From positions 59,471 through 123,470 of the forward strand of contig OZ241919.1 of NCBI GenBank assembly GCA_965203835.1: a stretch of 64,000 bases of DNA. Reading direction: 5' to 3'. Within the stretch, counting starts at the first letter, position 1. The number at the start of each line of letters is the position of its first letter. A program made the translations under genes and the position numbers. Under the pieces are notes generated by a model that did no database searches, was not told where the DNA came from, and was given only the letters and a program-made list of their open reading frames with translations. The DNA comes from Dehalococcoidia bacterium (GTDB taxonomy: Bacteria; Chloroflexota; Dehalococcoidia; Lucifugimonadales; UBA3495). Below, piece after piece: positions 14,300 through 59,343 of this stretch.

Positions 14300-15475
14300 T
14301 CAAGGCACCGGTTCCAGCGGCATCCCCAGCCTGACGCGGCCCGGTTGGTCTATAAGCCGACTGGCGATCCTGGCGCGGTGCTCGAAACTGGTGCCCAGCC
14401 GCAAGGTCCACGCGGTCACTCGCCTGAACCACAGGTGAAGATCGAACTCCATCATGAACCCGATGCCGCCGTGGATCATCTGCGACGAGCGTACCACCGC
14501 CTCGCACTTGTCATTACAGAACGCCTTGGCTTGGGACACCTCTACGGTCGCGTCCATGCCTTCGTCCATTTTCCAAAGGGCCTCGTAGGTCAGAAGTTGC
14601 GCCCCGTCGATCCACAAAGTCATATCGGCGCACAAGTGCTGGATGGACTGGAACGCGCCTATCGGCCTGCCGAAGGCAGTACGGTTCTTGGAGTATTCGA
14701 TGGCCATCTCGGCGTCTTTCCGGGCGGCCCCGGCCATTTGGCAACACAAGAGAACCGTCGCCCGGTCCACCATAGCTTCCACGATTGGCCAGCCTTGGTC
14801 CAGTTCGCCCACCAGGTTGGCCTTGGGTACCCGCACGTCACTGAAGGTAACTTGGCTTTGTTTGTCCTTCGCCAGGGTGGTCAACGGCACTTCGGAGATT
14901 CCCGGGCTGTTCGTATCAACCAGCAGCAGGGATATGCCTTGATTGTCGTCGGACGCAGCCGTGGTCCTGCAGGCCATCAAGCATTTGTCCGCGGCGCCGA
15001 AGTTGTCTACGAACATCTTGACGCCGTTGATGACAAATTCGTCACCCTGCTGTACCGCCTCGGTCTGCACAGTTTCCGGCAAGAGCCGCGGGTTTCGCTC
15101 GATGACGCTCCATGTCAAAATCGTGTCGCCCCGGCTGACTCCCGGCAAAATCTGTTGCCGTTGCTCCTCGCTGCCGTGTTCGGCGATGGTAAGAGCAGGG
15201 ACCATTGTGCTGTGGAAAGGCACCGGCGCGATGGCGCGGCCCAGTTCCTCCGTTATGATGCCCAGATAGGTCAGGGGCAGACCCTGGCCGCCCAAGGACT
15301 CGGGCAGCGCCAGTCCCAGCCAACCGAGCTGGGCCATTTGCCGCCAGAGTTCAGGGGGATAACCCAAGTCATCCTTTTCCATGGCACGGGCCAAGCTGGG
15401 AGGGCATTCCCCTTCCAGGAACTCCCTGGCCGCGTTCTTGACCATTTCTTCTTCTTCGTTTAACAGCACATCCAT
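14300..15475 (-). CDS. acyl-CoA dehydrogenase
   Basis: 391 aa, ACAD fold throughout: MVKNAAREFL..., INGVKMFVDN, QIHGGIGF. Confidence 0.85.
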   Translation of the reverse strand: MDVLLNEEEEMVKNAAREFLEGECPPSLARAMEKDDLGYPPELWRQMAQLGWLGLALPESLGGQGLPLTYLGIITEELGRAIAPVPFHSTMVPALTIAEHGSEEQRQQILPGVSRGDTILTWSVIERNPRLLPETVQTEAVQQGDEFVINGVKMFVDNFGAADKCLMACRTTAASDDNQGISLLLVDTNSPGISEVPLTTLAKDKQSQVTFSDVRVPKANLVGELDQGWPIVEAMVDRATVLLCCQMAGAARKDAEMAIEYSKNRTAFGRPIGAFQSIQHLCADMTLWIDGAQLLTYEALWKMDEGMDATVEVSQAKAFCNDKCEAVVRSSQMIHGGIGFMMEFDLHLWFRRVTAWTLRLGTSFEHRARIASRLIDQPGRVRLGMPLEPVP

Positions 15476-15548
15476 GACGTTACCCAGTGACTGAAGAGAT
15501 TACCCGGCCCTTCATCATAAGTATGTCAAAGGGCGTCCCGAAAATAGA

Positions 15549-16748
15549 CTACCCGCGGGGAAGGCCCAGACCACGGCGGGCCATCTGGTCTCGCATGACT
15601 TGAACACTGCCGTGATTGATGCCCGACTGGAAGGAACCCATCAGGTTATGGGCAAAGACACCGTCCTCGATAGCGCCTTCGGAACCGTTCAACAACTGGG
15701 CATAGGGGCCCAGTATCTGGGACACCGTTTCGGTGGTCCTGACCCCATGCTCAGGCGCCCACACCTTCTCAGCAGCGCCTTCGTAGGTGAAGTGGCCACC
15801 TCTTTCCACCAGCGACATGCTGCGCATGGTCATCAAGCGGCAGACCTGCGCCTCGATCCAAAGCTCGGCCAAGCGGTCGCGCACCGCCGGATCATCAGCG
15901 GGAGAATGACCTCCCAAGTCGTTGTCCTTCACCCAGTTGATAATATCCTCGTCTCGTTGCACCGATATCAGATACCTGCTGGCGCCCACCCGGTCCAGGT
16001 TCAACCCCATCGCGCCGACGTACCAGCCCATGTTCTCTTCACCCAACATGCTGGTCGCAGGCACCCGTACGTCTTCGAAGAAAGTCTCGTTGGTACGGCG
16101 CTGGCCGTAGGTGGTGCCCGTGGGGGCGGTAGGTTCGTTCTGAATGGTCCAGAGTGGCCGCACGGTGATTCCCGGCGTGTCCATTGGCACCAGGAAAATG
16201 GAAATACCCCGGTGTTTCGGAGCGTCTGGATCAGTGCGGGCCATCAAGTAAATGTGCGAGGCGTAATGGGCTGATGAGGTGTACATCTTCTGACCATTGA
16301 TGACGTAGTCATCGCCGTCCCTTACAGCCCTGCATTGGAGGCTGGCCAGGTCGGCGCCCCCATGAGGTTCGGTAAATCCAAGAGCCAGCGTGATGTCGCC
16401 GTTGATAAGGCCGGGCAGGAAATACTTTTTTTGTTCCTCGGTCCCGGCGGCGAGGATTGCAGGCGCGCCGCTTCCGGCTCCACCAACGCCGATACCAACC
16501 CGCCCGAACTCCTCTTCAACGATGTACTGGTCGATGCGGCTACCATCCTGGCCTCCGTACTCCTTGGGCCAACTGATGCCGATCCACCCCTTTTCGGCGA
16601 CCTTCTTGGTCAACTCGCTGACCAATGGGCCGCGGCCTTCTCCCACCATCACGATTTCCTCGCGGATATCGTCGGTTACGTTCTCGGCGATGAATTGCCT
16701 TACTTCTTGCCGCAGGGCTTGTTGTTCAGGTGTGTAACCAAAATCCAT
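15549..16748 (-). CDS. acyl-CoA dehydrogenase
   Basis: MDFGYTPEQQALRQEVRQFI..., GFTEPHGGADLASL, YVINGQKMYTS. ATG 16748 preferred over the track's TTG 16763. Confidence 0.85.
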   Translation of the reverse strand: MDFGYTPEQQALRQEVRQFIAENVTDDIREEIVMVGEGRGPLVSELTKKVAEKGWIGISWPKEYGGQDGSRIDQYIVEEEFGRVGIGVGGAGSGAPAILAAGTEEQKKYFLPGLINGDITLALGFTEPHGGADLASLQCRAVRDGDDYVINGQKMYTSSAHYASHIYLMARTDPDAPKHRGISIFLVPMDTPGITVRPLWTIQNEPTAPTGTTYGQRRTNETFFEDVRVPATSMLGEENMGWYVGAMGLNLDRVGASRYLISVQRDEDIINWVKDNDLGGHSPADDPAVRDRLAELWIEAQVCRLMTMRSMSLVERGGHFTYEGAAEKVWAPEHGVRTTETVSQILGPYAQLLNGSEGAIEDGVFAHNLMGSFQSGINHGSVQVMRDQMARRGLGLPRG

Positions 16749-16878
16749 GACGCTGCTCCGCAACGGGTGGCTAAAAACGGACTAAGCTTGGGGTCATTGT
16801 GCTTTCAACGGGTAATAGTGTCAAGCTGAATGAACGAGCAGGAGTATAACTTTCGTCACTGCCCAGCCGCTTGGACGC

Positions 16879-17895
16879 TCAAGGGTATGGAATAACGAAT
16901 GTAGTCACTTCTTCTGCGACGGCTTGTGCTGATTGCGCATCGCTCAGGACTGCGGTGATGACGACCGGCATGACCGTGCCCCCGGTGGCGGCGCGCAATA
17001 TTCCGGCGCGGCGCTTGGCCCGGTTCACGTCATCTTCGTCGGCGGTAAGCGACACTTCCACGACCGAGTGGCGATTGCTATCGTCTGAGATGATGAGGTC
17101 AGACTCGTACAGGTCTGAGGACTGCTCCCGAGAGATGGCGCCATTGCCAATAGCTTGGGCAATAGCGCTGTTCAGTTGGGGCGCGATGGTCCCGTCCTGG
17201 GTCAGCGCCAGATAGGGATTCTCTATGCCGAGTATATCCCTGGCGCGGACCAAGGCTCTAGTCCTGACTCTTCGCTCGTAGTCGCTGCCCTCAAAATTGC
17301 TGAATCGCCCCTCTAGCCGACCCATCCTGGTCTCCATCCGTTGCATCTGGGTTGCCAATTGTCCTACCACGGTTTCCAGGCTCTCCGTCCGGGTTAACAA
17401 TTGTCCTACCACGGTTTCCAGGCTCTCCGTCCGGGTTAACAATTGTCCTACCACGGTTTCCAGGTTTCCCGTCCTGGTTGCCAGTTGTCCTACCACGGTT
17501 TCCAGGTTTCCCGTCCTGGTTGCCAGTTGTCCTACCACGGTTTCCAGGTTTCCCGTCCGGGTTGCCAGTTGTCCTACCACGGTTTCCAGGCTCTCCGTCC
17601 GGGTTGCCAGTTGTCCTACCACGGTTTCCAGGCTCTCCGTCCGGGTTGCCAGTTGTCCTACCACGGTTTCCAGGTTTCCCGTTCTGGTTGCCAATTGCCC
17701 TACCACGGTTTCCAGTCGCCCCAACCGTTCATTGGTTATCCGATTACTTTCCTGTGTCAGTTGGACGAACTCTGCGAACCGGGCAGGCAGGTTCAACAGT
17801 TCTTCGCTCAGCAATAAGCTCCGAATCGTGTCGGCCCATTCGGGCTGTTCTTTCAGGATGCGGGCCAAATCCGCTATGTCGTTGATGGATGTCAC
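16879..17895 (-). CDS. coiled-coil repeat protein with PD-(D/E)XK-like C-terminal domain (uncharacterised family)
   Basis: 338 aa, GTG start. N-terminus MTSINDIADLARILKEQPEWADTIRSLLLSEELLNLP, then nine copies of the 14-aa unit LETVVGQLATRT(GN/ES), then a C-terminus ...ESDLIISDD...VVEVSLTADEDDVNRAKRRAGIL. A paralogue lies at 62622. Confidence 0.7.
   Translation of the reverse strand: MTSINDIADLARILKEQPEWADTIRSLLLSEELLNLPARFAEFVQLTQESNRITNERLGRLETVVGQLATRTGNLETVVGQLATRTESLETVVGQLATRTESLETVVGQLATRTGNLETVVGQLATRTGNLETVVGQLATRTGNLETVVGQLLTRTESLETVVGQLLTRTESLETVVGQLATQMQRMETRMGRLEGRFSNFEGSDYERRVRTRALVRARDILGIENPYLALTQDGTIAPQLNSAIAQAIGNGAISREQSSDLYESDLIISDDSNRHSVVEVSLTADEDDVNRAKRRAGILRAATGGTVMPVVITAVLSDAQSAQAVAEEVTTFVIPYP
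17351..17728 (-). repeat. nine tandem in-frame 42-bp repeats (378 bp)
   Basis: Direct reading: GTTGCCA(A/G)TTGTCCTACCACGGTTTCCAGG(CTCTCC/TTTCCC)GTCC(G/T)G is repeated head-to-tail. All three plus-strand frames give periodic shadow ORFs in the track. Confidence 0.9.
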
Positions 17896-17964
17896 GGTTA
17901 CTATTGTACTCTCTTAAAAATTGCTTCTGCTCTATGTCAGTCCCTTCGGTAACGGTAGCCGGGG

Positions 17965-19812
17965 TCAGATACCGCCGCTCCGGTTTAACACGGGTTTCAG
18001 AGCCTCGACCAACGGGGGAAGGTACTTTTCCCAGTCTCCCACAATCCCGAAATCGGCAGCGCGGAAAATCGTGTGCCTCCGGTTCCGGTTTACCGCCAGG
18101 ATCACCCCGGCCTTCTGTATGCCGACGGTATGGTTGAACACACCGCGGATGCCGACGGCGATGTAGACCCTTGGAGTGATGGTGCGACCGCTGATGCCCA
18201 CTTGAATCTGGTGCGGCAACCACCCGGCATGAGTCACGTTGCGGGTAATCGCCAGAGACGCGCCGATTGAACTGGCCAACTCCTGTATTTCAGGCAGGTT
18301 TTCCGGACCGCCTATGCCCATGCCCACTCCCAGAACCACCTGCGCCTGCACCAACTCTACCGCCCCCAAGTCGTCTTGCAGGGTTTCCTCGACAATGGTG
18401 ACGTCCCGGCCTTCGAATGGCTCAACGTCAATTCTTTCAACCCGGGCCGTGGCGTCCGGGTTTGGTGTCACGGGAGTAAGCAGTCCCGGACGGAGAGTGA
18501 CCATGTTGGGAAGAACTTTCGACAGGATGGGCGCGACCACGTTGCCGCCCAAGGCCGGCTTCAGTTGCACCAGTCGTCCTTCCTCGTCTATCTCCAGATC
18601 CACGGCATCGCCGGTCAGTCCCAGCCCCAACTTTGCGGCGACACGAGCGGCAAGGTCACGGCTGTCCGGCGTAGATGCAAAAAGCACGGCGTATGGACGG
18701 GCCACGTCCATTGCATTGGCCAACGCTTGGGTAACAGCGCGGCCCCAGATGGGACCCAGTCCCGTATTGTCGAGGACCAGCACTCTGTCCGCTCCGTAAG
18801 CCGCCAGTTGGTCCAGTTGGTCTTCACGGGCCGGGCCAATCAGCACCGCAGCCACTTCGCTTTTTGTAAAGGACGTCAACTCCCTTGCCCTGCCCAGCAT
18901 CTCCAGCGTCACCCGCCGCAACTCGCCCTGGGCCGTTTCGGCCACGACCCAAATGCTTTTCTCTAGACCTTGAGGGTAGTGCTCTGGAGCCGGGGCGTCC
19001 GATGGGTTGGCGGCTTGGGAGTCCACCTCGGCCAGCCGGTCGGCGAGCAACGCAGCTACTTGGCGGGCAGCCTCCTCGGCGTCCTCCTCCTCGATGACTA
19101 CGCCTAAGCGGTTGGGCTCCACCAGCCGGATGTCCTGCACCCAAGTGGGAGAACCCTCTATGCCGAATAACGACGTATCCGAAGAGAGTTGAGCGCAAGT
19201 GACCTCTTCCACCGGCTTGCTTTCGGCTTCGGCCATCTGGTCACGGTTGGGGAACAACTCCGGTCCCACTCCCTCGGTAACGCAGGCCAGCGCCGGAAGG
19301 GAGCACTCTATGACTTGGTGCCCTTCGTCACTGAGACGCTCTACCCTGACGCTGCCCGATTGGTCGGCGTAGTCCAGCTTGCTGACCTGTCCGATGTGCG
19401 GAATGTCCAGTAGTTCGGCGATTTCAGGGCCGACCTGGCCCGTCTCCGAATCTGAACTGTTCCGTCCGCACAAAATCAGGTCGGGATTTTCCTTCTGCAA
19501 GGCCATCGACAGGGCCCGTGCGGTCGCCAAGGTGTCCGATCCGGCCAACACCCTGTCGGTAACCAATATTCCCCGGTCGGCCCCCAATGCCAAGCAATGG
19601 ACCAGACCCTCGCGGGCTTGAGGCGGCCCCATGCACACCGCCACGACTTCGTCGCCAGGCTGGGTTTTGAGTTCGACTGCCCGCGCCAAGCCCAGCAAGT
19701 CGAAGGAGTTTATTTCCGACGGCACGCCTTCGCGCTTGATGGTCTTGTTCTCGTAGTCGAATTGGATCTGGGAAACCACCGGGACATATTTGACGCAAAC
19801 GGCAATTTTCAT
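17965..19812 (-). CDS. fused electron-transfer flavoprotein, EtfB domain followed by EtfA domain
   Basis: MKIAVCVKYVPVVSQIQFD... (EtfB-like), then a linker (...SQAANPSDAPAPEHYP), then SIWVVAETAQGELRRVTLEMLGRAREL...PRVYIAVGIRGVFNHTVGI (EtfA-like FAD region). Start set at ATG 19812. Confidence 0.8.
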   Translation of the reverse strand: MKIAVCVKYVPVVSQIQFDYENKTIKREGVPSEINSFDLLGLARAVELKTQPGDEVVAVCMGPPQAREGLVHCLALGADRGILVTDRVLAGSDTLATARALSMALQKENPDLILCGRNSSDSETGQVGPEIAELLDIPHIGQVSKLDYADQSGSVRVERLSDEGHQVIECSLPALACVTEGVGPELFPNRDQMAEAESKPVEEVTCAQLSSDTSLFGIEGSPTWVQDIRLVEPNRLGVVIEEEDAEEAARQVAALLADRLAEVDSQAANPSDAPAPEHYPQGLEKSIWVVAETAQGELRRVTLEMLGRARELTSFTKSEVAAVLIGPAREDQLDQLAAYGADRVLVLDNTGLGPIWGRAVTQALANAMDVARPYAVLFASTPDSRDLAARVAAKLGLGLTGDAVDLEIDEEGRLVQLKPALGGNVVAPILSKVLPNMVTLRPGLLTPVTPNPDATARVERIDVEPFEGRDVTIVEETLQDDLGAVELVQAQVVLGVGMGIGGPENLPEIQELASSIGASLAITRNVTHAGWLPHQIQVGISGRTITPRVYIAVGIRGVFNHTVGIQKAGVILAVNRNRRHTIFRAADFGIVGDWEKYLPPLVEALKPVLNRSGGI

Positions 19813-19877
19813 TGGATGTCCTTTACATAACCAATAGTAGGAAACCGGAGGCGCGTGCGCCACTTCCGGACGGTGAC

Positions 19878-21367: not shown

Positions 21368-21396
21368 TTGACACACGGCTGGCTGCTGGTTACCAT
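21368..21396 (+). promoter_or_regulatory. putative sigma70-type promoter of the SAM-riboswitch operon
   Basis: TTGACA (21368-21373), 17-nt spacer, TACCAT (21391-21396), about 35 nt upstream of the riboswitch P1 helix. Confidence 0.45.
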
Positions 21397-21429: not shown

Positions 21430-21567
21430 CCCTTTATCCAGAACGGCTGAGGGGACGGCCCGATGAAGCCGGGCAACCGGTCTAGCGCCCTACGATAGTG
21501 AGCGCGAGATACGGTGCTAATTCCGGCGTCTGTGGCGGGGATGTGGCGACAGGCGAAAGATGAGGGG
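21430..21567 (+). promoter_or_regulatory. SAM-I (S-box) riboswitch aptamer
   Basis: CCCTTTATCCAGAACGGCTGAGGGGACGGCCCGATGAAGCCGGGCAACCGG...ACGGTGCTAATTCCGGC...GAAAGATGAGGGG matches the S-box core. A 9-bp P1 forms between 21430-21438 and 21559-21567. Confidence 0.85.
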
Positions 21568-21582
21568 CTTGGTCTTTTATTG

Positions 21583-21610
21583 AGCTTCTCTTTTCAGAGA
21601 AGCTTTTTTA
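21583..21610 (+). terminator. riboswitch expression-platform intrinsic terminator
   Basis: 9-bp stem AGCTTCTCT / AGAGAAGCT, loop TTTC, followed by TTTTTTA. Confidence 0.75.
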
Positions 21611-21706
21611 TGGAGTCCGCATTTCCGCCCAGCCAACTCTCCTTGAAGACAGCTTTCCGGTGACGTTTGCGCCTTGTAAATCACCCTTGGCTGGGGGCAA
21701 CCTCCG

Positions 21707-22759
21707 TTGAACGAGATAAGGCCAATCCAGTGGACCGACGGCAAATTATGGTTGCTGGACCAGACACGTTTGCCGTTGGAAGAAGTCAATATGGAGGTCT
21801 CCCGGTACGACCAAGCGATAGATGCAATCCGAGAGATGCGGGTCAGAGGAGCGCCGGCAATAGGAGTGACCGCGGGCTACGCCATGGCGATGGCGGCACG
21901 GGAAATCGCCGCGGCCTACCAGACTGACTACCTGGCGCGGTTGGAAGATGCCGCCGCTCGCATCGGTGCGGCCCGTCCCACCGCCGTCAACCTCCAGTGG
22001 GCTGTGCAGCGAATGCTCCGGTTGGCCCATGACGAGCAGAACGTCAAAGACATTCCCGACAGGCTGCTGGCGGAAGCCCGCAAGATTCACACGGAAGATG
22101 AAGACATAAACCGGCGGATGGGGGACTTTGGCAAGGAACTGATGCCCGACGGGGGCGCGGTTTTGACCCATTGCAACACCGGTGCTCTAGCTACGTCCGG
22201 TTTCGGCACGGCCTTAGGCGTCATTCGCGCCGGATGGGAAGACGGCAAGCGGTTTCAAGTGTTCAATACCGAGACCAGGCCTTTCCTGCAAGGGTCGCGA
22301 TTGACGGCATGGGAGTTCCAGCAGCTTGGCATTCCCGCCACGCTGATCGTGGACTCGGCGGCGGGAATGATGATGAACGCCGGCCATATCAGTTGCGTGA
22401 TCACGGGGGCGGACCGTATCGCCGCCAACGGCGACACCGCCAACAAGATTGGCACTTACACCCTGGCGGTGCTGGCCCATGAAAACAACATCCCGTTCTT
22501 TGTGGCAGCACCTACCAGCACCATAGACCTTGGTCTGGCGACGGGAACCGACATTCAGATTGAAGAACGTCCGGCGGAAGAGGTCACTTACCTTCAAGCA
22601 CAGCCTACGGCGCCGCTCGGCACACCTGCCATGAATCCGGCCTTCGACGTTACACCCAACCGTTACATCAGCGCCATCGTTTCCGAGGCCGGTATCTCCC
22701 GGGCGCCATACCAGGAAAGTCTGACGCTTGCGGTGAAGTCCGCCGGGACCAACGGTTAA
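21707..22759 (+). CDS. mtnA: S-methyl-5-thioribose-1-phosphate isomerase
   Basis: 350 aa, TTG start. IQWTDGKLWLLDQTRLP...MRVRGAPAIGVTAGYAM...GADRIAANGDTANKIGTY. Confidence 0.85.
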   Translation: MNEIRPIQWTDGKLWLLDQTRLPLEEVNMEVSRYDQAIDAIREMRVRGAPAIGVTAGYAMAMAAREIAAAYQTDYLARLEDAAARIGAARPTAVNLQWAVQRMLRLAHDEQNVKDIPDRLLAEARKIHTEDEDINRRMGDFGKELMPDGGAVLTHCNTGALATSGFGTALGVIRAGWEDGKRFQVFNTETRPFLQGSRLTAWEFQQLGIPATLIVDSAAGMMMNAGHISCVITGADRIAANGDTANKIGTYTLAVLAHENNIPFFVAAPTSTIDLGLATGTDIQIEERPAEEVTYLQAQPTAPLGTPAMNPAFDVTPNRYISAIVSEAGISRAPYQESLTLAVKSAGTNG

Positions 22760-22769
22760 CTGGAGTATC

Positions 22770-23639
22770 ATGGCCACCCAGACAGCGAAGATAGGGATCA
22801 TAGGGGGCAGCGGCCTGTACGAGATGGACGGGCTGACAGGTGTGGAGTTCGTGGACATCGAGACCCCCTTCGGAAGCCCCAGCGACTCTATCGCCATCGG
22901 GGACTTATCCGGCATCCCAGTCGCTTTCCTGCCCCGGCATGGCCGCGGGCACCGCATCAGTCCCACAAATCTGCCCAGCCATGCCAACATCTATGCCCTC
23001 AAGACGCTGGGCGTGGAACGCATCGTTTCGATCAGCGCCGTAGGCAGTCTGAAAGAAGAACTGGAACCGCTCCATCTGGTGGTGCCCGACCAATTGATCG
23101 ACCGTACCCGCAACAGGGTAAACACCTTCTTCGACGAAGGCATGGCCGGCCACATCACCTTCGCCGACCCGTTCTGCGCCCCATCGAGCAAGATAGTGTA
23201 CGAAGGCGCCGTGGAAATTGGGATTGATGTGCATCAAGGTGGGACGCTGGTGGTAATGGAAGGCCCCGCCTTCTCCACCAGGGCCGAGTCCTTCATGTAC
23301 CGGTCATGGGGCGGGGACCTGATTGGCATGACCGCGTTGCCTGAGGCAAAGCTGGCGAGAGAGGCTGAAATCTGCTACGCCACTATGGCCTGGGTCACCG
23401 ACTACGACTGCTGGCACGAAGAAGAGGAAGACGTTACCGTGGAGATGATCATCGGCAACCTGCTGAAAAACGTGGCCGCTTCCAAGGAGTTGCTGCGCCG
23501 GATCATCCCTCGCTTGGACGTAGAGCGGGACTGCCCTTGTGGTTCGGCGTTGGCCGATGCGCTCGTAACCGCGCCGGACTTGGTCCCTGAAGAAATAAAA
23601 CGTAAGTTGGAACCGATAACGGGCCGGTATTGGTCCTGA
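22770..23639 (+). CDS. mtnP: S-methyl-5'-thioadenosine phosphorylase
   Basis: 289 aa. IGIIGGSGLY...FLPRHGRGHRISPTNLPSHANIYALK...GMTALPEAKLAREAE. Confidence 0.85.
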   Translation: MATQTAKIGIIGGSGLYEMDGLTGVEFVDIETPFGSPSDSIAIGDLSGIPVAFLPRHGRGHRISPTNLPSHANIYALKTLGVERIVSISAVGSLKEELEPLHLVVPDQLIDRTRNRVNTFFDEGMAGHITFADPFCAPSSKIVYEGAVEIGIDVHQGGTLVVMEGPAFSTRAESFMYRSWGGDLIGMTALPEAKLAREAEICYATMAWVTDYDCWHEEEEDVTVEMIIGNLLKNVAASKELLRRIIPRLDVERDCPCGSALADALVTAPDLVPEEIKRKLEPITGRYWS

Positions 23640-23659
23640 AGAATCGAGGAGGTCCCACG

Positions 23660-25343
<1,684 letters not shown>

Positions 25344-25388
25344 ACCGGTTATCCAAGAATCAATGAAACGAACCATGGAGTGACCCTT

Positions 25389-26621
25389 ATGCCTCTACTG
25401 TTTCACGAGTCGCCCAAGTACCTGTTGACCTCCGAATCTGTCACCGAAGGCCATCCCGACAAGCTGTGCGACCAGATCTCCGACGCGGTGCTGGACGCCG
25501 CCTTGGCCGGGGACAACATGAGCCGGGTAGCCTGCGAGACCGTGGCCACCAAGAACCTGGTTATGGTCACCGGCGAGATAACATCGAATTCAAATTTGAA
25601 CTTCAACGACATCGCCCGCCAGGTCATGCTCGACATCGGCTACACCGACGTCAAGTACGGCTTGGACGGCCACTCATGCGGAGTTGTCGCCCACGTCAGC
25701 CAGCAATCGGCCGACATCAGCCAGGGTGTTACCACCGCTTTGGAGCACCGCACCGAAGGCGAAGCCGCCGACGCCAGGAGGGCCACCGGAGCCGGTGACC
25801 AAGGGATGATGGTGGGTTTCGCCTGCAACGAGACCGAAAGCCTGATGCCGTTGACGGTTGACCTGTCCCATCGGTTGGTGGAACGGTTGGCCGCGGTGCG
25901 CAAGGACGGCACCCTCCCTTACCTGGGGCCCGACGGCAAGTCCCAAGTCACCGTGGAATACCGCTACGGCAAGCCCCACCGAGTGGATGCCGTGGTCATA
26001 AGCACCCAGCATGAAGACCAGGAAGACCGGGACGCCTTCAGGGAAATCATCTACAGCGACATCATCGAGCACGTCATAAAGCCCGTTGTCCCCGCGAACC
26101 TCCTGGACGACGACACCAAGTACTACGTCAACCCCAGCGGATGGTTCGTCATTGGCGGGCCGCAGGGAGACACCGGCTTGACCGGGCGCAAGATCCTGGT
26201 GGACACCTACGGAGGGATCGCCAGGCATGGTGGCGGCGCGTTCTCCGGCAAAGACCCTACCAAGGTCGACCGGTCCGGCGCCTATGCCGCCCGGTATGTC
26301 GCCAAGAATCTGGTGGCTGCCGGACTGGCGGACCGGGTCGAGGTTATCGTCTCCTACGCCATCGGCGTCGCCAGGCCGATCTCCGTCTCCGTGGAGACTT
26401 TCGACACCAGCCACTTCCCCAACGACAAAATCGAGCAACTGGTCCAGGACAACTTCGACCTGCGACCGGGGGCGATAATCGAGGACCTTGACCTGCGCAG
26501 GCCCATTTACGGCAAGACGGCCGCCTACGGTCATTTTGGCCGTGCGGATGTGGACCTGCCTTGGGAACGTACCGACAAAGCGGATGCACTGAGGGCTGCG
26601 GCGGGGCTGGCGACCAAGTAA
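25389..26621 (+). CDS. metK: S-adenosylmethionine synthase
   Basis: [26 protein letters not shown]...[12 protein letters not shown]...[22 protein letters not shown] 25389 lies 8 nt after GGAG. Confidence 0.9.
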
Positions 26622-26662
26622 ACCGGCAGCCTTGGACACCGGAAGTTGCGGCGAGGAGGGTT

Positions 26663-27403
26663 ATGGAAAAGCAGGAAAGAGACAATATCATGACCCGCTT
26701 GACACCGGAAGAGCGGAATACCATGCGTCAATTGATCGTTGACGCCAAGGAAGAATGGAAGTCCCGCGGTCTGGAAGTCTTCACCGCCCAGAAGGGTCTT
26801 GGACCCCGCAAAGAGGGCCTGTCTCCGCAACTCCAAGCCGCAATAGACGCGGTCATCGCCAGGGACGAAATGGGGCCGGCGGTGGGGCAGGAGCCGCCGG
26901 ACTTTAACCTCAAATTATTGGGGTCTGACGAACGTGTCCGGCTGTCCGATTATCGTGGCAAAAGGCCGGTCGCCCTCGTTTTCGGTAGCTACACTTGACC
27001 GCCCTTCCGCTCCCAGGTTGGGCGCATAGAAGAGGTTTACTATCGGTTCGGGAGCCAGGTCGAGTTCTTCGTGGTGTACGTTCAGGAAGCACACCCGTCC
27101 GACGGTTGGCAAATGCCGATAAATGTCGAGGAAAATGTAATCTACCGCCAGCACCAGAGCTATGACGAACGGGAGGAAACGGCGGCGGCTTGCAGTTTGG
27201 GCCTCGATATAAAACTCCCGGTCCTTATCGAAGAAATGGACAACGCGGTTGACTACGGCTACGGCGCTGCCCCGGAACGGCTCTATCTCGTGGACTCCAC
27301 CGGCCTCGTCGCGTATCACGGTGGAGCGGGGCCTCACTTCTTCAACGTGGATGAGTGGGAACAGGCCATTCAGGCCTGCCTTGCCACGGTCACTTCGCCC
27401 TAG
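26663..27403 (+). CDS. deiodinase-like thioredoxin-fold protein with in-frame TGA (26996-26998), probable selenocysteine
   Basis: Track ORFs 26561..26998 and 27071..27403 share one frame and are separated only by this TGA. Read-through gives ...RPVALVFGSYT-U-PPFRSQVGRIEEVYYRFGSQVEFFVVYVQEAHPSDGW, the iodothyronine-deiodinase family active-site pattern. ATG 26663 follows GAGGAGG. Confidence 0.7.
27009..27025 (+). promoter_or_regulatory. candidate bacterial SECIS-like hairpin
   Basis: Starts 11 nt after the TGA. Pairs are G27009-C27025, C10-G24, (U11/C23 mismatch), C12-G22, C13-G21 and C14-G20, with apical loop AGGUU. Short and unvalidated. Confidence 0.3.
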
Positions 27404-49948: not shown

Positions 49949-51118
49949 ATGATCCCTGCTTCGATGATCGAGTCCATTCACATTCGCGGCTTCCGGTCTT
50001 TGGCGGATGTAGAACTTTCCAACCTTCCCCAAGCAGCGGTATTGATTGGAGCCAACGGGTCCGGCAAGTCCAACTTCATCAGGTTTTTCGATATGTTGAG
50101 TTGGATGCTGCGCTCCCGTCAACTCGGGGAGTTTGTCACCAGGCATGGGGGCGCGGACGACCAACTCTTTGGAGGTAATGTCCGCACACCTCGCATGGAA
50201 GCCGAGATCAGGATGAGAACGGAACGCGGGCAGAATGACTATCGCTTCGCACTGTCCTATGCCCATCCTGACCGCTTCTTCTTCACAGAAGAAGCCTTCC
50301 GTTTTAGCAGTTCAGACCTTCCAACGGAGGCTCAATGGCAATACCTCGAGAGCGGCCATCGTGAAGCAAGGATAGTGGAAGTCGCGCAGTCCCGACCAAA
50401 CCCTTTTGTCGATCTCCGTTATTTGGTCAATCCCATTCCTCCCGTCAATCCTGCCACGGCCTCGGTCATCGTAAACCTATTGCGTAACTGCTCTGTCTAT
50501 CAATTCCATGACACATCCGACAGTTCCAGCTTTAAAGGCAGTTGGGACATGACCGAAAATCACCAACTCCGAAGTCATGGCGGAAATTTGGCGGCCGTGC
50601 TGTACCGCTTGGAGCAACGAGATGTCCGAAGATACGAACTGATCTGTAAACAGATCGCGCGTATACTGCCCGGGTTTGACCGTTTCGCGATCGAACCTGA
50701 CTATGGCAAAGTCTTATTGAGGTGGAAAGCCAAGTGGACAGACAAAACCTTCGGCGCGCATATCACCTCCGACGGCTCACTACGGTTCTTTGCGCTGGTG
50801 ACGCTGCTTAATCTTCCACCCGAAATGCTCCCAGACGTAATTCTGCTGGACGAGCCGGAACTCGGTCTGCATCCCGCAGCCGTCGCTTTAGTCGGCGGAA
50901 TGATAAAGTCCATGTCTGCGGAGCGGCAGATTATCGTGGCAACTCAATCGCCTCTCCTGGTGGATGCGTTTGACCTTGACGATATTTTCGTGCTGGACCT
51001 TGAGGATGGAAAAACAAAATGCCGCAAGCTCAACGCGGACGATTACAGGGTGTGGCTTGAAGACGGCTACCCTACCGGGCAGCTATGGTGTAAGAACCTG
51101 TTCGGAGGCCGCCCTTGA
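49949..51118 (+). CDS. ABC/SMC-like AAA ATPase (AAA_15/AAA_21 type)
   Basis: 389 aa. Walker A GANGSGKSN (residues 34-42), signature-like SDGSLRFFAL, Walker B VILLDEPELGLHP, then IVATQSP. AT-richer region. Confidence 0.75.
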   Translation: MIPASMIESIHIRGFRSLADVELSNLPQAAVLIGANGSGKSNFIRFFDMLSWMLRSRQLGEFVTRHGGADDQLFGGNVRTPRMEAEIRMRTERGQNDYRFALSYAHPDRFFFTEEAFRFSSSDLPTEAQWQYLESGHREARIVEVAQSRPNPFVDLRYLVNPIPPVNPATASVIVNLLRNCSVYQFHDTSDSSSFKGSWDMTENHQLRSHGGNLAAVLYRLEQRDVRRYELICKQIARILPGFDRFAIEPDYGKVLLRWKAKWTDKTFGAHITSDGSLRFFALVTLLNLPPEMLPDVILLDEPELGLHPAAVALVGGMIKSMSAERQIIVATQSPLLVDAFDLDDIFVLDLEDGKTKCRKLNADDYRVWLEDGYPTGQLWCKNLFGGRP

Positions 51119-52797: not shown

Positions 52798-55700
52798 TTG
52801 ACTTCTTCCACAAACACTGATCAGCAACGCCGCACCATGCTCTTCGTCACCACGGCGGACACCGACATTCTGACCGCGGAACGGGCTTTGTCCGGACTAC
52901 CGGATGAGTTTCCCCAGGTAGTGGCGTTCAATCCCGTCAATCTTGCCGATTCCGAGGCGCAGGAGACCTTGCTGCAAGCGGTGGAACATGCGGGAGTGGC
53001 AGTGTTGCGCCTCCTGGGCGGCAAGCGGGCGCTACCCGATCTTTTCGATCCCTTGGTCCGCGCTTGCCAGTCCCAGGGCGTCCCGCTTATCGCCTGTCCT
53101 GGCCATCAGGAATGGGACGAAGACCTGGTTACCGCGTGCAGCGTTCCGGTTGCCGAGGTTGAGACTGTTTTCGCCTACTTGATGCGGGGCGGCGTCCAGA
53201 ACCTGCAAAACCTCTTCCTGTTCCTGAGCGACACTTACTTCGATACCAGCTACGGCCACGACGCCCCAACTCACCTGCCTTGGGAGGGTTTGTATCACCC
53301 CGATGTCGCCGAGGGCACTGGCTTGGACGACTATATGCGGCTGCGGTTCACCGACGGCAAGCCCAACGTTGCCGTCCTCTTCTATCGCGCCCACTGGATG
53401 AGCGGCAACCTTCAAGCCATAGACAGCCTCGTGCGTCGGCTTGAAGGGCTGGAGGCCAACGTCCTGCCTATTTTCTCCTACAGTCTCAAACACAACCCCG
53501 AAGGGGACGGGCAATCCAACCGGACCTTCACCGAGTTCCTGGCAGGGCCGGACGGAACGCCCCGTGTCGATTGCATCATCAACACCATGGGCATGTCTAT
53601 GAGTGAACTCAGCACGGAAGGGGCAACCATTGCCGCCGGGTGGTCGGTGGACTACCTGGACCAACTGGACGTTCCCATGCTCCAAGGCATAGTCAGCACC
53701 GGCACCCAAGAGGAGTGGGATGAAAGTTCCTTGGGCTTGGGCCCCATCGACACCGCCATGAGCGTAGCCCTGCCGGAGTTCGACGGCAGGATCATCTCGG
53801 TGCCCATCTCCTTCAAGCAGGAAACCGCCGCCGCGCAAGACGGGAAACTGGCTGGACGGCTTCAGCGGTACGTGGCCCATGAAGACCGGGTGGACTATTT
53901 AGCCCGTCTGGCCATCAAGTGGGCCAAGCTGCGGGTCAAGCCCAACTCTGAAAAGCGCGTCGCCATTATCCTGAGCAACTACCCCACCAAGGACGCCCGC
54001 ATCGGCAACGCCGTCGGCCTTGACACCCCGGCATCGGTGATACGGATTCTTCACGAACTGGAAAGCGCCGGCTATCACGTTGTCGACATCCCGGAAAACG
54101 GCGACGACCTCGTCCATCGCATCATCGAACGTTGCAGCAACGACCGGGACTACCTTACCGAAGAGCAACTCAGGATGGCGGCGGGCCACGTTACGAGCCA
54201 ACAGTACAGTGAGTGGTTCCAAGGCTTTCCGCCCTCCGTCGCGGAAGAGATGACCGAGGCATGGGGCGACCCTCCGGGACAGGTATACCGCAGCAACGGC
54301 AGCCTGGCCATCGCCGGCATCGACCTCGGCAACGTATTCGTGGGTCTTCAGCCTCCCCGGGGGTTCGGTGAGAACCCCATCTCCGTCTATCACAGCCCTG
54401 ATCTGGCCCCCACTCACCACTACATCGCCTATTACCGCTGGATAAAGGATGTGTTCCAAGCCGACGCCATGATTCACGTCGGCAAACACGGTACCCTTGA
54501 ATGGCTTCCGGGCAAAGGCATCGGGCTGTCGGCGGCCTGCTATCCTGAAGTGGCCCTGCAGGACCTCCCTTTGTTCTATCCGTTCATTATCAACAATCCC
54601 GGTGAAGGCGCGCAGGCCAAGCGGCGCACCCACGCGACCGTCGTCGATCACCTCATCCCAGCGATGACCACCGCCGACAGCTACGGAGACATCGCCAGGG
54701 TCGAGCAGTTGATGGACGAACACTACCAATGCCAGACCCTGGACCCAGCCAAGCTGCCCCTGCTGGAGACCCAGATTTGGGAACTGGTGAAGCAGGCTGA
54801 GTTGCACCGGGACCTGGATATGGACGAACGCCCCGAGGATTTCGGCGATTTCATACTTCATATAGACGGCTATCTCTGCGAGTTGAAGGACCTCCAGATC
54901 AAAGACGGTCTTCATATCCTGGGAGAAGCTCCGGAGGGCGAACAACTCGTCGGGCTGCTCTGCGCCCTGACCCGGCTGGACATCAGCGGCATCCCGAGCC
55001 TGCGCCGCGCCGTGTCGGAAGCCCTGGGGCTGGACTACCAGGTCATGCTCTCCGACCCCGCTCAACCCGTCGAAGGCGCGCTTCCCGAAGCAATCGCCCA
55101 AGTCACCCAGGATGCCCCGGTGCGTACCTACGGCGACCTGCTGGAGGGCGTCGAAGCCATTTGCCGTAGCGCCTACACCCAACTGCTGCAACAAGGGTTC
55201 CAACCCGGAGCCGTCGCCCCCGTGGTGCGTCAACTGCTGGGCCATGAAGACCACCAAACCAACACCGTGCTGGAGTATGTCGCCAACACCATCTACCCGG
55301 CCCTGCTCAAGACCCCTGACGAGCTGGGCAACCTGTTGCGGGGACTGGAAGGCCGGTTTGTTCCTCCGGGGCCGAGCGGGGCGCCCACTAGGGGCATGGC
55401 CAACATCCTGCCCACGGGACGCAATTTTTACTCGGTAGACCCCAATACCATCCCGTCGCCCGTGGCTTGGGAGACCGGCAAAGCCCTGTCGGAGGCTCTG
55501 TTGGAGAAATACCTCTCCGAAGAAGGCGCCTACCCGGAGATGGTGGGCATGGTCGTATGGGGAACGTCGGCCATGCGGACCCACGGAGACGACATCGCCC
55601 AGATTCTGCACCTTCTGGGTGTGCGGCCCGTCTGGCAGCCGGAGAGCCGCCGCGTATTGGGACTGGAAGTGATACCCAAGGAGGAGTTGGGGCATCCCCG

Positions 55701-56670
55701 CATCGACGTCACGGTGCGCATCAGTGGTTTCTTCAGGGACGCCTTTCCCAACCTGATCAACCTGCTGGACCAAGCCGTGGAGTTGGCCGCATCGCAGGAC
55801 GAAGGCCCTGAGGACAACTTCGTAGTCAAGCACCTGCGCGAAGACCTCGCGGGTGGTCAGTCGCCAGTGACCAGTGACCGGGAAGCGATGACTGACCACC
55901 AGCCACTGACCACTGAGCACTCCCACCTGTACCGCATATTCGGCAGCAAGCCCGGCACCTACGGGGCGGGAATTCTGGCGGCGTTGGACGAGCGGAACTG
56001 GGAGACCGTGGAGGATCTGGCAGAGGTGTACACCGCATGGGGCGGGTACGCCTACACCCGGCAGGACTTCGGCGTCAGCGCCCGCACGCAATTCCGCCGC
56101 CGGTTCAGCCAGATAGTGGTCGCCGCCAAGAACCAGGACACCCGAGAACACGACATCTTCGACAGCGACGACTACATGCAGTACCACGGCGGCATGATCG
56201 CCACCGTGCGCGCCCTGACCGGCCGGAACCCGCGGGAGTTCTTCGGGGACAGCGCCGACCCCTCCCGGGCCAGGGTCCGCGACCTTCAGGACGAGGCCCG
56301 CCGGGTGTTCCGCAGCCGCGTGGTCAACCCGAAGTGGATCGAGTCCATGAAGCGCCACGGCTACAAGGGTGCCTTCGAACTGGCAGCGACGGTGGACTAC
56401 ATGTTCGGCTATGATGCCACCGCCCAAGTGGTCGAAGACTGGATGTACGAAGACGTTACCGAAAGCTACGTCCTGGACCCAGAGACCCAGCGGTTCTTCC
56501 AGGAAAGCAATCCGTGGGCGTTACGGAGCGTGGTGGAACGCCTACTGGAAGCCATCGAGCGCGGACTGTGGGAGGAACCTCCGCCCGAGATGCGGGACAA
56601 GCTGTTGCAGCTTTACTTGGAGTTGGAGGCCGATTTGGAGGCCCGCCAGGAAGGACGGCAGGCTGGATGA
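52798..56670 (+). CDS. cobN: cobaltochelatase subunit CobN (CobN/Mg-chelatase H family)
   Basis: 1290 aa, TTG start after GGGAGG. Family-typical segments: YHPD..., HVGKHGTLEWLPGK, GPSGAPTRG, NPKWIESMKRHGYKGAFE. Confidence 0.9.
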   Translation: MTSSTNTDQQRRTMLFVTTADTDILTAERALSGLPDEFPQVVAFNPVNLADSEAQETLLQAVEHAGVAVLRLLGGKRALPDLFDPLVRACQSQGVPLIACPGHQEWDEDLVTACSVPVAEVETVFAYLMRGGVQNLQNLFLFLSDTYFDTSYGHDAPTHLPWEGLYHPDVAEGTGLDDYMRLRFTDGKPNVAVLFYRAHWMSGNLQAIDSLVRRLEGLEANVLPIFSYSLKHNPEGDGQSNRTFTEFLAGPDGTPRVDCIINTMGMSMSELSTEGATIAAGWSVDYLDQLDVPMLQGIVSTGTQEEWDESSLGLGPIDTAMSVALPEFDGRIISVPISFKQETAAAQDGKLAGRLQRYVAHEDRVDYLARLAIKWAKLRVKPNSEKRVAIILSNYPTKDARIGNAVGLDTPASVIRILHELESAGYHVVDIPENGDDLVHRIIERCSNDRDYLTEEQLRMAAGHVTSQQYSEWFQGFPPSVAEEMTEAWGDPPGQVYRSNGSLAIAGIDLGNVFVGLQPPRGFGENPISVYHSPDLAPTHHYIAYYRWIKDVFQADAMIHVGKHGTLEWLPGKGIGLSAACYPEVALQDLPLFYPFIINNPGEGAQAKRRTHATVVDHLIPAMTTADSYGDIARVEQLMDEHYQCQTLDPAKLPLLETQIWELVKQAELHRDLDMDERPEDFGDFILHIDGYLCELKDLQIKDGLHILGEAPEGEQLVGLLCALTRLDISGIPSLRRAVSEALGLDYQVMLSDPAQPVEGALPEAIAQVTQDAPVRTYGDLLEGVEAICRSAYTQLLQQGFQPGAVAPVVRQLLGHEDHQTNTVLEYVANTIYPALLKTPDELGNLLRGLEGRFVPPGPSGAPTRGMANILPTGRNFYSVDPNTIPSPVAWETGKALSEALLEKYLSEEGAYPEMVGMVVWGTSAMRTHGDDIAQILHLLGVRPVWQPESRRVLGLEVIPKEELGHPRIDVTVRISGFFRDAFPNLINLLDQAVELAASQDEGPEDNFVVKHLREDLAGGQSPVTSDREAMTDHQPLTTEHSHLYRIFGSKPGTYGAGILAALDERNWETVEDLAEVYTAWGGYAYTRQDFGVSARTQFRRRFSQIVVAAKNQDTREHDIFDSDDYMQYHGGMIATVRALTGRNPREFFGDSADPSRARVRDLQDEARRVFRSRVVNPKWIESMKRHGYKGAFELAATVDYMFGYDATAQVVEDWMYEDVTESYVLDPETQRFFQESNPWALRSVVERLLEAIERGLWEEPPPEMRDKLLQLYLELEADLEARQEGRQAG

Positions 56671-58477: not shown

Positions 58478-58572
58478 TGGGCTTCAGTTGGCGACGAGCT
58501 GTTTCATCCGTAATCGACCGGTGCTGATATAGTTTCCAAGACCTTGACGCCCATGAGGCGTGGGAGGGCCAC

Positions 58573-59343
58573 GTGGAAAGAGTCTTGCCCACCGCTATGG
58601 TTATGGGTCTTATTGCTGGCCTGCTCGTAGCCGGGTACATGAATATTTTCAATGTGCCCGTCATGGAGTGGGCCATTGACCTTGAGGGCAAAGCGGCCTT
58701 GGCCGAGCCCGCAGGCGATGAACAGGAACTGCCGCTCTCATGGGCTACCAGCCTTGGCGCGCAACGGGTGGGGATGACCTTGGGGCTGGCGGTGGTAGGC
58801 GTGCTTTGCGGCGCGGTATTCTCCGGGTTGTACTACCTTACCCGCCGGGCAACTCCGGGCTGGAGTCCTTGGGCATGGGCCGTGATTGCGGGGTTGCTGG
58901 GGTTCTGGTCGGTGTCCATGTTCACCCAGCTCAAATTCCCCCTCAATCCTCCCGGCGTAGGCGATGAAGGAACATTGCTGGCCCGCCAAGGGTTGCAATT
59001 CCTGGTAATCGCCGTCTCCGCGGTCTCAGCCGCGGCGGTCCTTTACGCTGTGGGCGTTGTGAACCGCACCTCGTCCGGCTCCGACCGTTGGTTGCGCTAT
59101 GCCAGCATCGGTCTGGCTTATGCGGTGGTCATGTTGTTGTTGGGTTTCGCGGTGCCCAACGTGCGCGACGCCGCCCCCGACTGGCTGCCCCCGGCGTTAG
59201 TCATCATGTTCCGCACCTTCACCGCCGTCGGCCACTTCCTCTTGTGGATGGGCATATCCTTCGGCACGGTTGGATACCTGCTGTACCGGCAGAAAGGAAT
59301 CCATGCTTACCGGCAATCCTCGAATACCGGCGTCAGAGTATAG
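58573..59343 (+). CDS. cbtA: cobalt transporter subunit CbtA
   Basis: 256 aa, polytopic. LKFPLNPPGVGDEG loop typical of CbtA. GTG start after GGGAGGG. Confidence 0.75.
   Translation: MERVLPTAMVMGLIAGLLVAGYMNIFNVPVMEWAIDLEGKAALAEPAGDEQELPLSWATSLGAQRVGMTLGLAVVGVLCGAVFSGLYYLTRRATPGWSPWAWAVIAGLLGFWSVSMFTQLKFPLNPPGVGDEGTLLARQGLQFLVIAVSAVSAAAVLYAVGVVNRTSSGSDRWLRYASIGLAYAVVMLLLGFAVPNVRDAAPDWLPPALVIMFRTFTAVGHFLLWMGISFGTVGYLLYRQKGIHAYRQSSNTGVRV

Follow-up and report, generated by a model that had tools for sequence, protein, structure and literature searches.

A deiodinase-like gene with a probable in-frame selenocysteine codon in a Dehalococcoidia bacterium

Analysis of a 64,000-nucleotide stretch of a Dehalococcoidia genome (GenBank assembly GCA_965203835.1, contig OZ241919.1, positions 59,471 to 123,470 of the forward strand; this whole stretch is called the window, and coordinates are numbered within it) revealed two neighbouring open reading frames (ORFs), 26561..26998 and 27071..27403, which lie on the + strand in the same frame in the window's ORF list. 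We conclude from sequence comparison that these two "split" ORFs are very probably one gene for a 246-residue deiodinase-like enzyme, with an active-site selenocysteine (Sec) encoded by an in-frame UGA. An earlier note on this DNA, which proposed such recoding, had stated that the two ORFs share a frame and are separated by a single TGA between ATG 26663 and 27403, and translation of 26561-27403 confirmed this: the sole internal stop is the TGA at 26996-26998, between GKRPVALVFGSYT and PPFRSQVGRIEEVYYRFGSQVEFFVVYVQEAHPSDGWQMP or, in another excerpt, between RGKRPVALVFGSYT and PPFRSQVGRIEEVYYRFGSQVEFFVVYVQEAHPSDGWQMP. The gene at 26663-27403 is colinear with a full-length cysteine-containing homologue, P0001, and with 80 genomic loci. 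ATG 26663 is the likely start codon, being preceded by a Shine-Dalgarno-like sequence and opening an MEK(Q/A)ERD... N-terminus that is common to the window protein, P0001 and the nearest genomic relative, L001. The features of the gene are as follows.

26653..26659, + strand: Shine-Dalgarno-like GAGGAGG, 3 nt before ATG 26663, from direct reading of the sequence
26663..27403, + strand: complete predicted gene for a deiodinase-like selenoprotein, ATG to TAG, 246 codons including Sec112, in one frame with one internal TGA
26663..26887, + strand: N-terminal hydrophilic helical extension, residues 1-75, without a membrane segment, from the AlphaFold2 (AF2) model of P0001 and hydropathy
26996..26998, + strand: in-frame UGA, the predicted Sec112 codon in FGSYT-U-PPF, from comparison of the TGA/Cys column and alignment with Dio3 and Dio2
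27009..27025, + strand: hairpin of the bacterial Sec insertion sequence (SECIS) type, with 7 stem positions, a GGU loop and invariant G 27016, from folding and covariation
27086..27109, + strand: EAHPSDGW motif (Glu142, His144, Trp149) bordering the deiodinase-specific insertion (loop-D), from alignment with Dio3 and Dio2
27191..27193, + strand: TGC codon of Cys177, a candidate resolving cysteine, at least 95% conserved in 82 Sec-form sequences

Profile and structure-database searches, run with the Sec residue (U) of the window protein read as Cys, bore out the suggestion that this is a deiodinase-like protein of the thioredoxin fold. The Pfam family PF00837, T4_deiodinase, matched at 111.5 bits against a cut-off of 27 (E 5e-32), with residues 74-232 covering profile positions 75-229 of 237. 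The AhpC/TSA profile (PF00578) also exceeded its threshold over an overlapping region, but far more weakly (34.4 bits against a cut-off of 26), and the Redoxin profile gave a much weaker overlapping match. The best NCBIfam model, NF038285 "deiodinase_rel", aligned with residues 12-240 at E 1.4e-58 and 199 bits, which is below its curated cut-off of 250. Only profile positions 111-344 of 347 were matched, and because the first ~110 model positions are missing, the window protein is a shorter relative of NF038285 and not an equivalog. The best sequence matches among solved structures were mouse Dio3 (4tr3, E 9e-25) and Dio2 (9h48, E 4e-22). In both, the catalytic Sec (Cys in the crystallised proteins) aligns with the UGA column, in agreement with the earlier note, which had placed the stop exactly at the Sec/Cys column of the deiodinase active site. 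The EAHPSDGW motif aligns residue for residue with EEAHPSDGW in Dio3 and DEAHPSDGW in Dio2.

The UGA column was followed in a genome scan that took one genome per prokaryotic species and returned at least 598 confirmed homologous loci, of which the best 80 are used in the comparisons below. These come mostly from metagenome-assembled genomes (MAGs) of Dehalococcoidia, SAR202 and other Chloroflexota, and the remainder from Candidatus Entotheonella, Myxococcota, Binatia and other delta-type lineages. TGA stands at the exact Sec column, in FGSYT-TGA-PPFR, in each of the 83 gene copies found in the 80 loci, at 46-89% protein identity to the query, and the UGA is followed by an invariant C across the aligned loci. 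Among 120 listed database homologues the column holds Cys in 79 and Trp in 3, and another 22 are N-truncated and start a few residues later. The Cys homologues are more distant, and the six checked at the DNA level all carry TGT or TGC; the alignment of homologues that the earlier note had recommended found either TGA or Cys codons at this position. The three Trp residues are printed in translations from the Joint Genome Institute (JGI; P0005, from L081:946, P0024 and P0036). For P0005, the only Trp entry checked, the DNA of locus L081 shows TGA with a perfect hairpin, indicating that its Trp is an artefact of a translation table with TGA=Trp.

Codon differences from the nearest genomic relative (L001, CBDCFV01, 89% identical) were predominantly synonymous upstream of the TGA (26 synonymous, 10 non-synonymous) and downstream of it (47 synonymous, 21 non-synonymous), indicating that both halves of the gene are under purifying selection. 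Moreover, TGA terminates 23 of the 63 long ORFs in the window, which argues against reassignment of the genetic code. The conserved TGA, the Cys homologues, the selection on both sides and the standard code together effectively exclude that the locus is a pseudogene, a product of sequencing error or a pair of independent genes.

A hairpin directly downstream of the UGA is likewise maintained among the TGA-bearing homologues. A gap-free alignment of the 57 nt surrounding the TGA in 81 sequences, those of the window and the 80 loci, contains a 7-bp stem (columns 20-26 with 30-36) enclosing a 3-nt loop, the first base of which, G (27016 in the window), is invariant in the 81 sequences. Standard pairs occupy 86% of the stem cells, whereas shifting the 3' partner by 1-3 columns lowers this share to 20-51%; 45 cells show double changes, and 0 of 500 shuffles reached the pairing or covariation score. 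At pair 21-35 (CG 57, UA 16, UG 5) the change is from CGC...CGC (Arg) to CGU...CAC (His), and at pair 24-32 (UA 31, CG 26) GCU...GAG (Glu) alternates with GCC...GGG (Gly). This coupling of a synonymous third position to an amino-acid-changing second position fits selection on RNA pairing and not on the protein. In contrast, the Cys-form genes (n=6) lack the hairpin, forming a mean of 2.5 of the 7 pairs compared to 6.0 in the 80 distinct Sec forms, and their local folding energy is weaker (Mann-Whitney p 8e-4, n=6 versus 80, a small Cys set). The hairpin is displaced ~4 nt downstream in one sub-clade (L062-64, 68, 70-72, 74, 76). The comparison across genomes thus indicates that the UGA has been kept under selection together with its downstream hairpin.

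In the window, the hairpin begins 10 nt after the UGA and has an energy of -7.7 kcal/mol. It consists of the pairs G27009-C27025 and C27010-G27024, a mismatch of U27011 and C27023, and CCCA (27012-15) paired with UGGG (27019-22) around the loop GGU (27016-18), which is equivalent to the apical AGGUU described earlier if the A-U pair is left open. The E. coli fdhF-type SECIS is a hairpin inside the ORF, ~10-11 nt after the UGA, with a short upper stem and a small loop containing a conserved G. The window element resembles it in its position within the ORF, its short upper stem, a loop G followed by U or G, and its overlap with coding sequence, but the window clade differs in having a 3-5 nt loop and a 6-7 bp stem and in lacking a conserved bulged U. 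The 10-nt distance from the codon and the presence of a G in a small loop agree with published descriptions of bacterial SECIS elements (PMC1088965, PMC9312934). A longer SECIS with an added lower stem (columns 15-18 with 40-43), which corresponds to the minimum-free-energy fold of the window sequence, was rejected, as this stem is only 58% paired across the homologues.

These comparisons bear on three explanations in which the UGA would not encode Sec. If UGA mostly acted as a stop, the functional products of the locus would be a 111-residue N-terminal protein and/or a C-terminal one initiated separately at GTG 27071. Bacterial Sec insertion does compete with termination, and gene callers yield such fragments, as in the 22 N-truncated database entries. 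However, neither half is a complete thioredoxin fold, the UGA separates the catalytic FGSYT-U-PPF junction of strand and helix from the EAHPSDGW insertion, although the two are predicted to pack together in a Dio3-like model, and the Cys-form homologues are contiguous. GTG 27071 also has no conserved counterpart, since fragments elsewhere start with MGRIE..., MEEIY... or MTPF..., and we consider predominant termination very improbable. Slightly less credible still is decoding of the UGA as another amino acid, through reassignment to Trp or Gly or through near-cognate Cys/Trp suppression in a leaky UGA-C context. Termination at UGA is weak when the next base is C, so the invariant UGA-C and the three JGI translations that print W at this column could be read in this way, but the invariant C is also explained by the following Pro codon, and the W entry that was checked is a TGA codon with the same hairpin. 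The use of TGA as a terminator elsewhere in the window, the presence of Cys in this column in homologues (the classic Sec/Cys signature), and the selection for a downstream structure whose loop G is invariant, a feature that leakiness alone would not require, all argue against such decoding. The least probable of the three is a pseudogene or assembly error, with the TGA arising from nonsense mutation or from miscalling of TGC/TGT and the full-length protein not being produced. One genome with an in-frame stop, and a local hairpin that is not significant alone, could not exclude this; the recurrence of the same TGA in every copy from 80 independently assembled genomes, the synonymous excess in both halves and the co-conservation of the hairpin in TGA forms only leave it with hardly any weight.

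Several observations nevertheless weigh against recoding by Sec insertion or against the function proposed below. The 64-kb window contains no tRNA genes, and no SelA, SelB or SelD domain was found among 30 scanned ORFs (flanking genes and other large ORFs) of the ~63 long ORFs in the window, EF-G being the only EF-type translational GTPase in this set; the earlier remark that selA, selB, selD and tRNA-Sec are missing from the window agrees with these scans. The hairpin of the window, taken alone, does not exceed shuffled sequence in stability (z -0.6 to -1.7), it carries the internal U/C mismatch, and a search of 26950-27100 against Rfam at a permissive threshold matched no family. The Sec assignment is drawn from sequence comparison, and the enzymatic chemistry wholly from analogy. 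Finally, the gene neighbourhoods differ by clade, and halogen or peroxide metabolism is not a recurrent theme among them. The mismatch in the window and L001 stems is due to Ser (UCC) in place of the Ala found in most genomes, and, because the single-sequence fold is at the shuffled level, the significance of the hairpin comes from the comparison only. Accordingly, the hairpin proposed at 27009-27025 in the earlier note stood as to its location and its conservation with compensatory changes only in TGA genes, but not as a significant structure in this one sequence, where it is weak. No tRNA-Sec was found near the gene by ARAGORN in any of the 80 loci. Indirect support for the capacity of the lineage to use Sec comes from published surveys: Dehalococcoidia MAGs rank with the bacteria richest in selenoproteins, having 46-49 such genes (PMC13326102), and in one sponge microbiome most of the symbiont bins, from different phyla, have SelA and SelB together (PMC5649159).

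A search of the window for other selenoprotein genes, in which all TGAs with at least 40 open codons on both sides were scanned, yielded many candidates owing to the high G+C content, but only the TGA at 26996 lies in a real two-sided gene. The TGA at 25341 was rejected as the stop of ahcY, which is followed by metK in the same frame, and the TGA at 58525 as the end of a small ORF followed by CbtA. Elsewhere, two Dehalococcoidia loci, L062 (TGA 5538, 6307, 11317) and L064 (5538, 6307), contain three or two TGA-containing paralogues within ~6 kb, two of them in tandem, each with its own hairpin shifted ~4 nt relative to the main clade. A Sec form that is 55% identical over residues 1-245 and bears the same N-terminal extension as the window protein occurs outside the Chloroflexota, in the sponge symbiont Candidatus Entotheonella sp. 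TSY1 (L044, KI931778.1), which suggests lateral transfer among sponge or marine symbionts.

The architecture of the protein was examined with an AF2 model of P0001, a full-length Cys homologue that is 61% identical to the window protein and of the same architecture. The model (mean pLDDT 88.7, pTM 0.81) shows a thioredoxin-fold domain after an N-terminal extension of four helices, which is less confident (pLDDT 64-84). Its top PDB matches were Dio3 and Dio2, with template modelling (TM) scores of 0.75-0.81 on target length, followed by ResA/TlpA-type oxidoreductases and the 1-Cys peroxiredoxin AhpE. The maximum 19-residue Kyte-Doolittle hydropathy of the window protein is 1.1 and its N-terminus is strongly hydrophilic, compared to a maximum of 2.4 in the Cys form P0034. 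This lack of a hydrophobic segment indicates a soluble protein, which is presumably cytoplasmic.

Alignment with Dio3 showed that Ser167, Thr169, Tyr197, Glu200, His202 and His219 correspond to Ser109, Thr111, Tyr139, Glu142, His144 and His164 of the window protein. Roles of these Dio3 residues as a proton relay, and of the EAHPSDGW residues, have been described (PMC11592359). Conservation among the 82 Sec forms is at least 95% for the first five and 70-95% for His164, which is lost in distant Cys forms; in a further alignment (A3), Glu142 and His144 are invariant and Trp149 is at least 90% conserved. Cys177, which lies in the following helix and is at least 95% conserved in the same Sec forms, could plausibly serve as the resolving cysteine, the analogue being the distal Cys205 of Dio2 (PMC11592359). 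In contrast, the GGRGP of Dio3 aligns with GGAGP in the window protein, so that Arg275, proposed with Lys241 of Dio2 to act as a clamp for the amino-acid carboxylate of the hormone (PMC11592359), is replaced by Ala222.

Comparison with the vertebrate iodothyronine deiodinases Dio1-3 (4tr3, 9h48) reveals both a shared core and clear differences. The window protein has in common with the deiodinases the thioredoxin fold with the Dio-specific insertion, the FGS-x-T-Sec-PPF and EAHPSDGW motifs, the proton-relay set and a Glu before RLY. In contrast, identity is only ~26-29%, the N-terminal membrane anchor is absent, and the SECIS is a hairpin within the coding region, unlike the kink-turn element in the 3' untranslated region of the deiodinase genes. 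Relative to Dio3, the Arg275 clamp is missing, Cys168 is replaced by Tyr110, and Cys239 has no counterpart, the conserved Cys177 in the following helix being present instead. With these differences, iodothyronine cannot be assumed to be the natural substrate of the window protein.

The protein has closer counterparts among bacterial selenoproteins. A deiodinase-like family with an in-frame UGA, Cys homologues and a bacterial SECIS was described from the Sargasso Sea in 2005 (four Sec and six Cys forms; Zhang, Fomenko & Gladyshev, PMC1088965), counted again in 2008 in the Global Ocean Sampling (GOS) data (22 Sec and 21 Cys forms; PMC2398784), and included in the prokaryotic selenoprotein catalogues of 2022 and 2026 (PMC9312934, PMC13188914). 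The literature gives its function as unknown, "possibly redox", the redox proposal being that of the describing authors (PMC1088965), and the earlier statement that deiodinase-like selenoproteins of unknown function had been predicted in marine metagenomes is thus correct (PMC1088965, PMC2398784). Judged by sequence, the window gene has every feature that defines this family, namely Pfam00837 homology, the UGA/Cys column, a SECIS directly downstream with a loop G, and a marine or uncultured origin, and it is a further member that differs in nothing essential. Three differences in detail were found. The 2022 and 2026 reviews list a UxxC motif (PMC9312934, PMC13188914), whereas the window clade and the 80 loci have U-P-P-F without a Cys at +3; the GOS table gives no motif for this family (PMC2398784). 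Second, the window clade carries a ~75-residue hydrophilic helical N-terminal extension, and third, one of its sub-clades is located directly after metK in a row of genes headed by a S-adenosylmethionine (SAM) riboswitch.

No new mechanism is revealed by these data, and the family has been predicted since 2005. What they add is that the family is very common in Dehalococcoidia/SAR202, that its SECIS covariation is clean, that its database entries are systematically truncated, and that it includes a soluble clade with a helical N-terminal extension in which the deiodinase relay is kept and the hormone clamp is not. With species genomes numbering at least 598 and natural Cys variants for expression, this clade offers a compact soluble target in a family that has been without an assigned function for as long as it has been known.

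We propose, as one explanation that we hold to be highly probable, that the gene encodes a soluble selenoprotein made by SECIS/SelB-dependent decoding of UGA and acting through a cycle of the deiodinase/peroxiredoxin type. Bacterial SECIS hairpins bind SelB carrying Sec-tRNA(Sec) and thereby direct insertion of Sec at UGA (PMC9312934). By extension of this established bacterial mechanism, the UGA at 26996-26998 would be read as Sec in translation, with the hairpin at 27009-27025 recruiting SelB-GTP-Sec-tRNA(Sec) in competition with release factor 2. Sec112, situated beside the network of Ser109, Thr111, Tyr139, Glu142, His144 and His164, would then act as the nucleophile and remove an electrophile from a small molecule, which could be the halonium of a halogenated phenolic or an oxygen atom of a peroxide. 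Cys177 would resolve the Se-X or Se-OH so formed to a selenenylsulfide, which thioredoxin or a low-molecular-weight thiol would reduce. As the hormone-clamp Arg of Dio3 is Ala222 here, the substrate is unlikely to be thyroid hormone, and by analogy we propose a non-hormone small molecule, with a halogen or a peroxide oxygen as the candidate group transferred.

The same recoding could serve another chemistry, that of a generic Sec-dependent peroxidase or thiol-disulfide oxidoreductase without dehalogenation, and we give this explanation a probability only a little short of even. It gains from the AhpC/TSA match above threshold, from the ResA/TlpA-type proteins and AhpE that follow Dio3 and Dio2 among the structural neighbours, from the redox function proposed by the describers of the family (PMC1088965), and from the rhodanese, thioredoxin-like protein and sulfite-oxidase-like molybdenum (Mo) enzyme that neighbour the gene in some clades. 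The window protein indeed shares with atypical 2-Cys and 1-Cys peroxiredoxins and with TlpA/ResA oxidoreductases the fold class, a nucleophile at the N-terminus of helix alpha1 and a possible resolving second Cys. However, the peroxidatic motif of peroxiredoxins is PxxxT/SxxC, and this motif is absent from the window protein, where VFGSYT-U-PPF has Thr at -1 and no Pro at -7. CxxC is lacking as well, the scores are much weaker than those of the deiodinases, and the Sec clade conserves both the deiodinase insertion and all residues of the proton relay (Ser, Thr, Tyr, Glu, His, His). Dehalogenation by the window protein, argued from the deiodinases, is in our view doubtful, and a more specific form of it is marginally less probable again, namely a cobalamin-independent reductive dehalogenase that would remove Br or I from halogenated phenolics (bromotyrosine-type metabolites, halophenols) through halogen abstraction as in the animal deiodinases, in the marine and sponge-associated Dehalococcoidia/SAR202 where the enzyme is widespread. 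If true, this would give a function to a 20-year-old orphan family and a second dehalogenation system, unrelated to RdhA, to the class. In a weaker variant, the gene would, in the sub-clade of the window, share control by the SAM riboswitch with the methionine-salvage/SAM-cycle genes, and its product may act on a S- or Se-containing metabolite of that cycle.

The genomic context of the gene is headed by the following row.

21431..26621, + strand: SAM riboswitch (Rfam RF00162, 65.6 bits), mtnA, methylthioadenosine (MTA) phosphorylase, ahcY and metK (Pfam), upstream of the selenoprotein gene

The riboswitch itself occupies 21431-21566 (+) and the metK stop is at 26621. On the + strand the riboswitch is flanked by a promoter-like site (21368-21396) and a hairpin resembling a terminator (21582-21605). 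Because no + strand terminator-like site was found between metK and the selenoprotein gene, co-transcription is conceivable, and the metK row and the gene are possibly on one transcript. Downstream lies a gene for phosphoglucomutase/phosphomannomutase (PGM) and, beyond it on the opposite strand, rplM, truA, rpoA and rpsD. The order with the SAM-cycle genes is kept in 10 of the 80 loci, but in the same 10 all nine flanking genes are colinear, so that the arrangement reflects shared descent and no specific functional link, and the metK linkage was set aside as a clue to function.

Across the 80 loci, no neighbour is common to the different clades. Instead, at least five different conserved contexts were found: the SAM-cycle genes with PGM; rhodanese, Mo-oxidoreductase, Ham1, MoxR and VWA; a thioredoxin-like protein with dienelactone hydrolase; a sensor kinase, NHL, a beta-lactamase-fold protein and gamma-glutamyltranspeptidase; and a luciferase-like protein, SMP-30 and PanB. 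Since these contexts vary without a common partner or a hint of substrate, prediction of function from gene neighbourhood was dropped. A gene of the dienelactone-hydrolase family is found near the Sec gene in 15 loci (L022, L026-L059) belonging to two neighbourhoods that otherwise differ; it precedes the Sec gene in one and follows it in the other, a weak hint of functional pairing that is not general. Two Cys-form relatives, P0040 of an Opitutaceae genome (L088) and P0020 (L082), are placed quite differently: one, whose N-terminus resembles a signal peptide, sits between two sulfatase genes, and the other is part of a MarR-DUF2141-deiodinase-like-DSBA row.

The division of this gene into two ORFs reflects a general problem of annotation. 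Gene callers stop at UGA and therefore return such a gene as an N-terminal stub plus a C-terminal fragment. The C-terminal half matched 2305 cluster representatives at E <= 1e-3 and 645 at E <= 1e-10, many of them fragments of ~120-140 residues that start just past the Sec column; such fragments also make up a large share of the 150 best cluster representatives. Since standard callers split or truncate these genes, the deiodinase-like family, and hence the use of selenium in Dehalococcoidia/SAR202, is under-counted.

Other regions of the window contain gene groups of separate interest. The + strand between 52798 and 62480 looks like a cobalt uptake and chelation cluster. There, CobN (52798-56670) lies just upstream of a cobalamin riboswitch (RF00174, 57874-58057, +), which precedes a 104-residue ORF and CbtA (58573-59343); these are followed on the + strand by a ChlI/VWA-type chelatase subunit (59489-61600) and a DM13-domain protein. 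On the - strand, the region 14300-19863 includes a 632-residue ORF with electron transfer flavoprotein (ETF) beta-type and ETF alpha FAD-binding domains, a fused EtfBA, which adjoins two acyl-CoA dehydrogenase genes. Finally, an AAA_21/AbiEii-type ATPase with an SMC_N-like N-terminus is encoded at 49949-51118 (+), beside EF-G and a ribosomal-protein cluster, and may represent a defence or toxin-antitoxin-type insertion in a housekeeping region.

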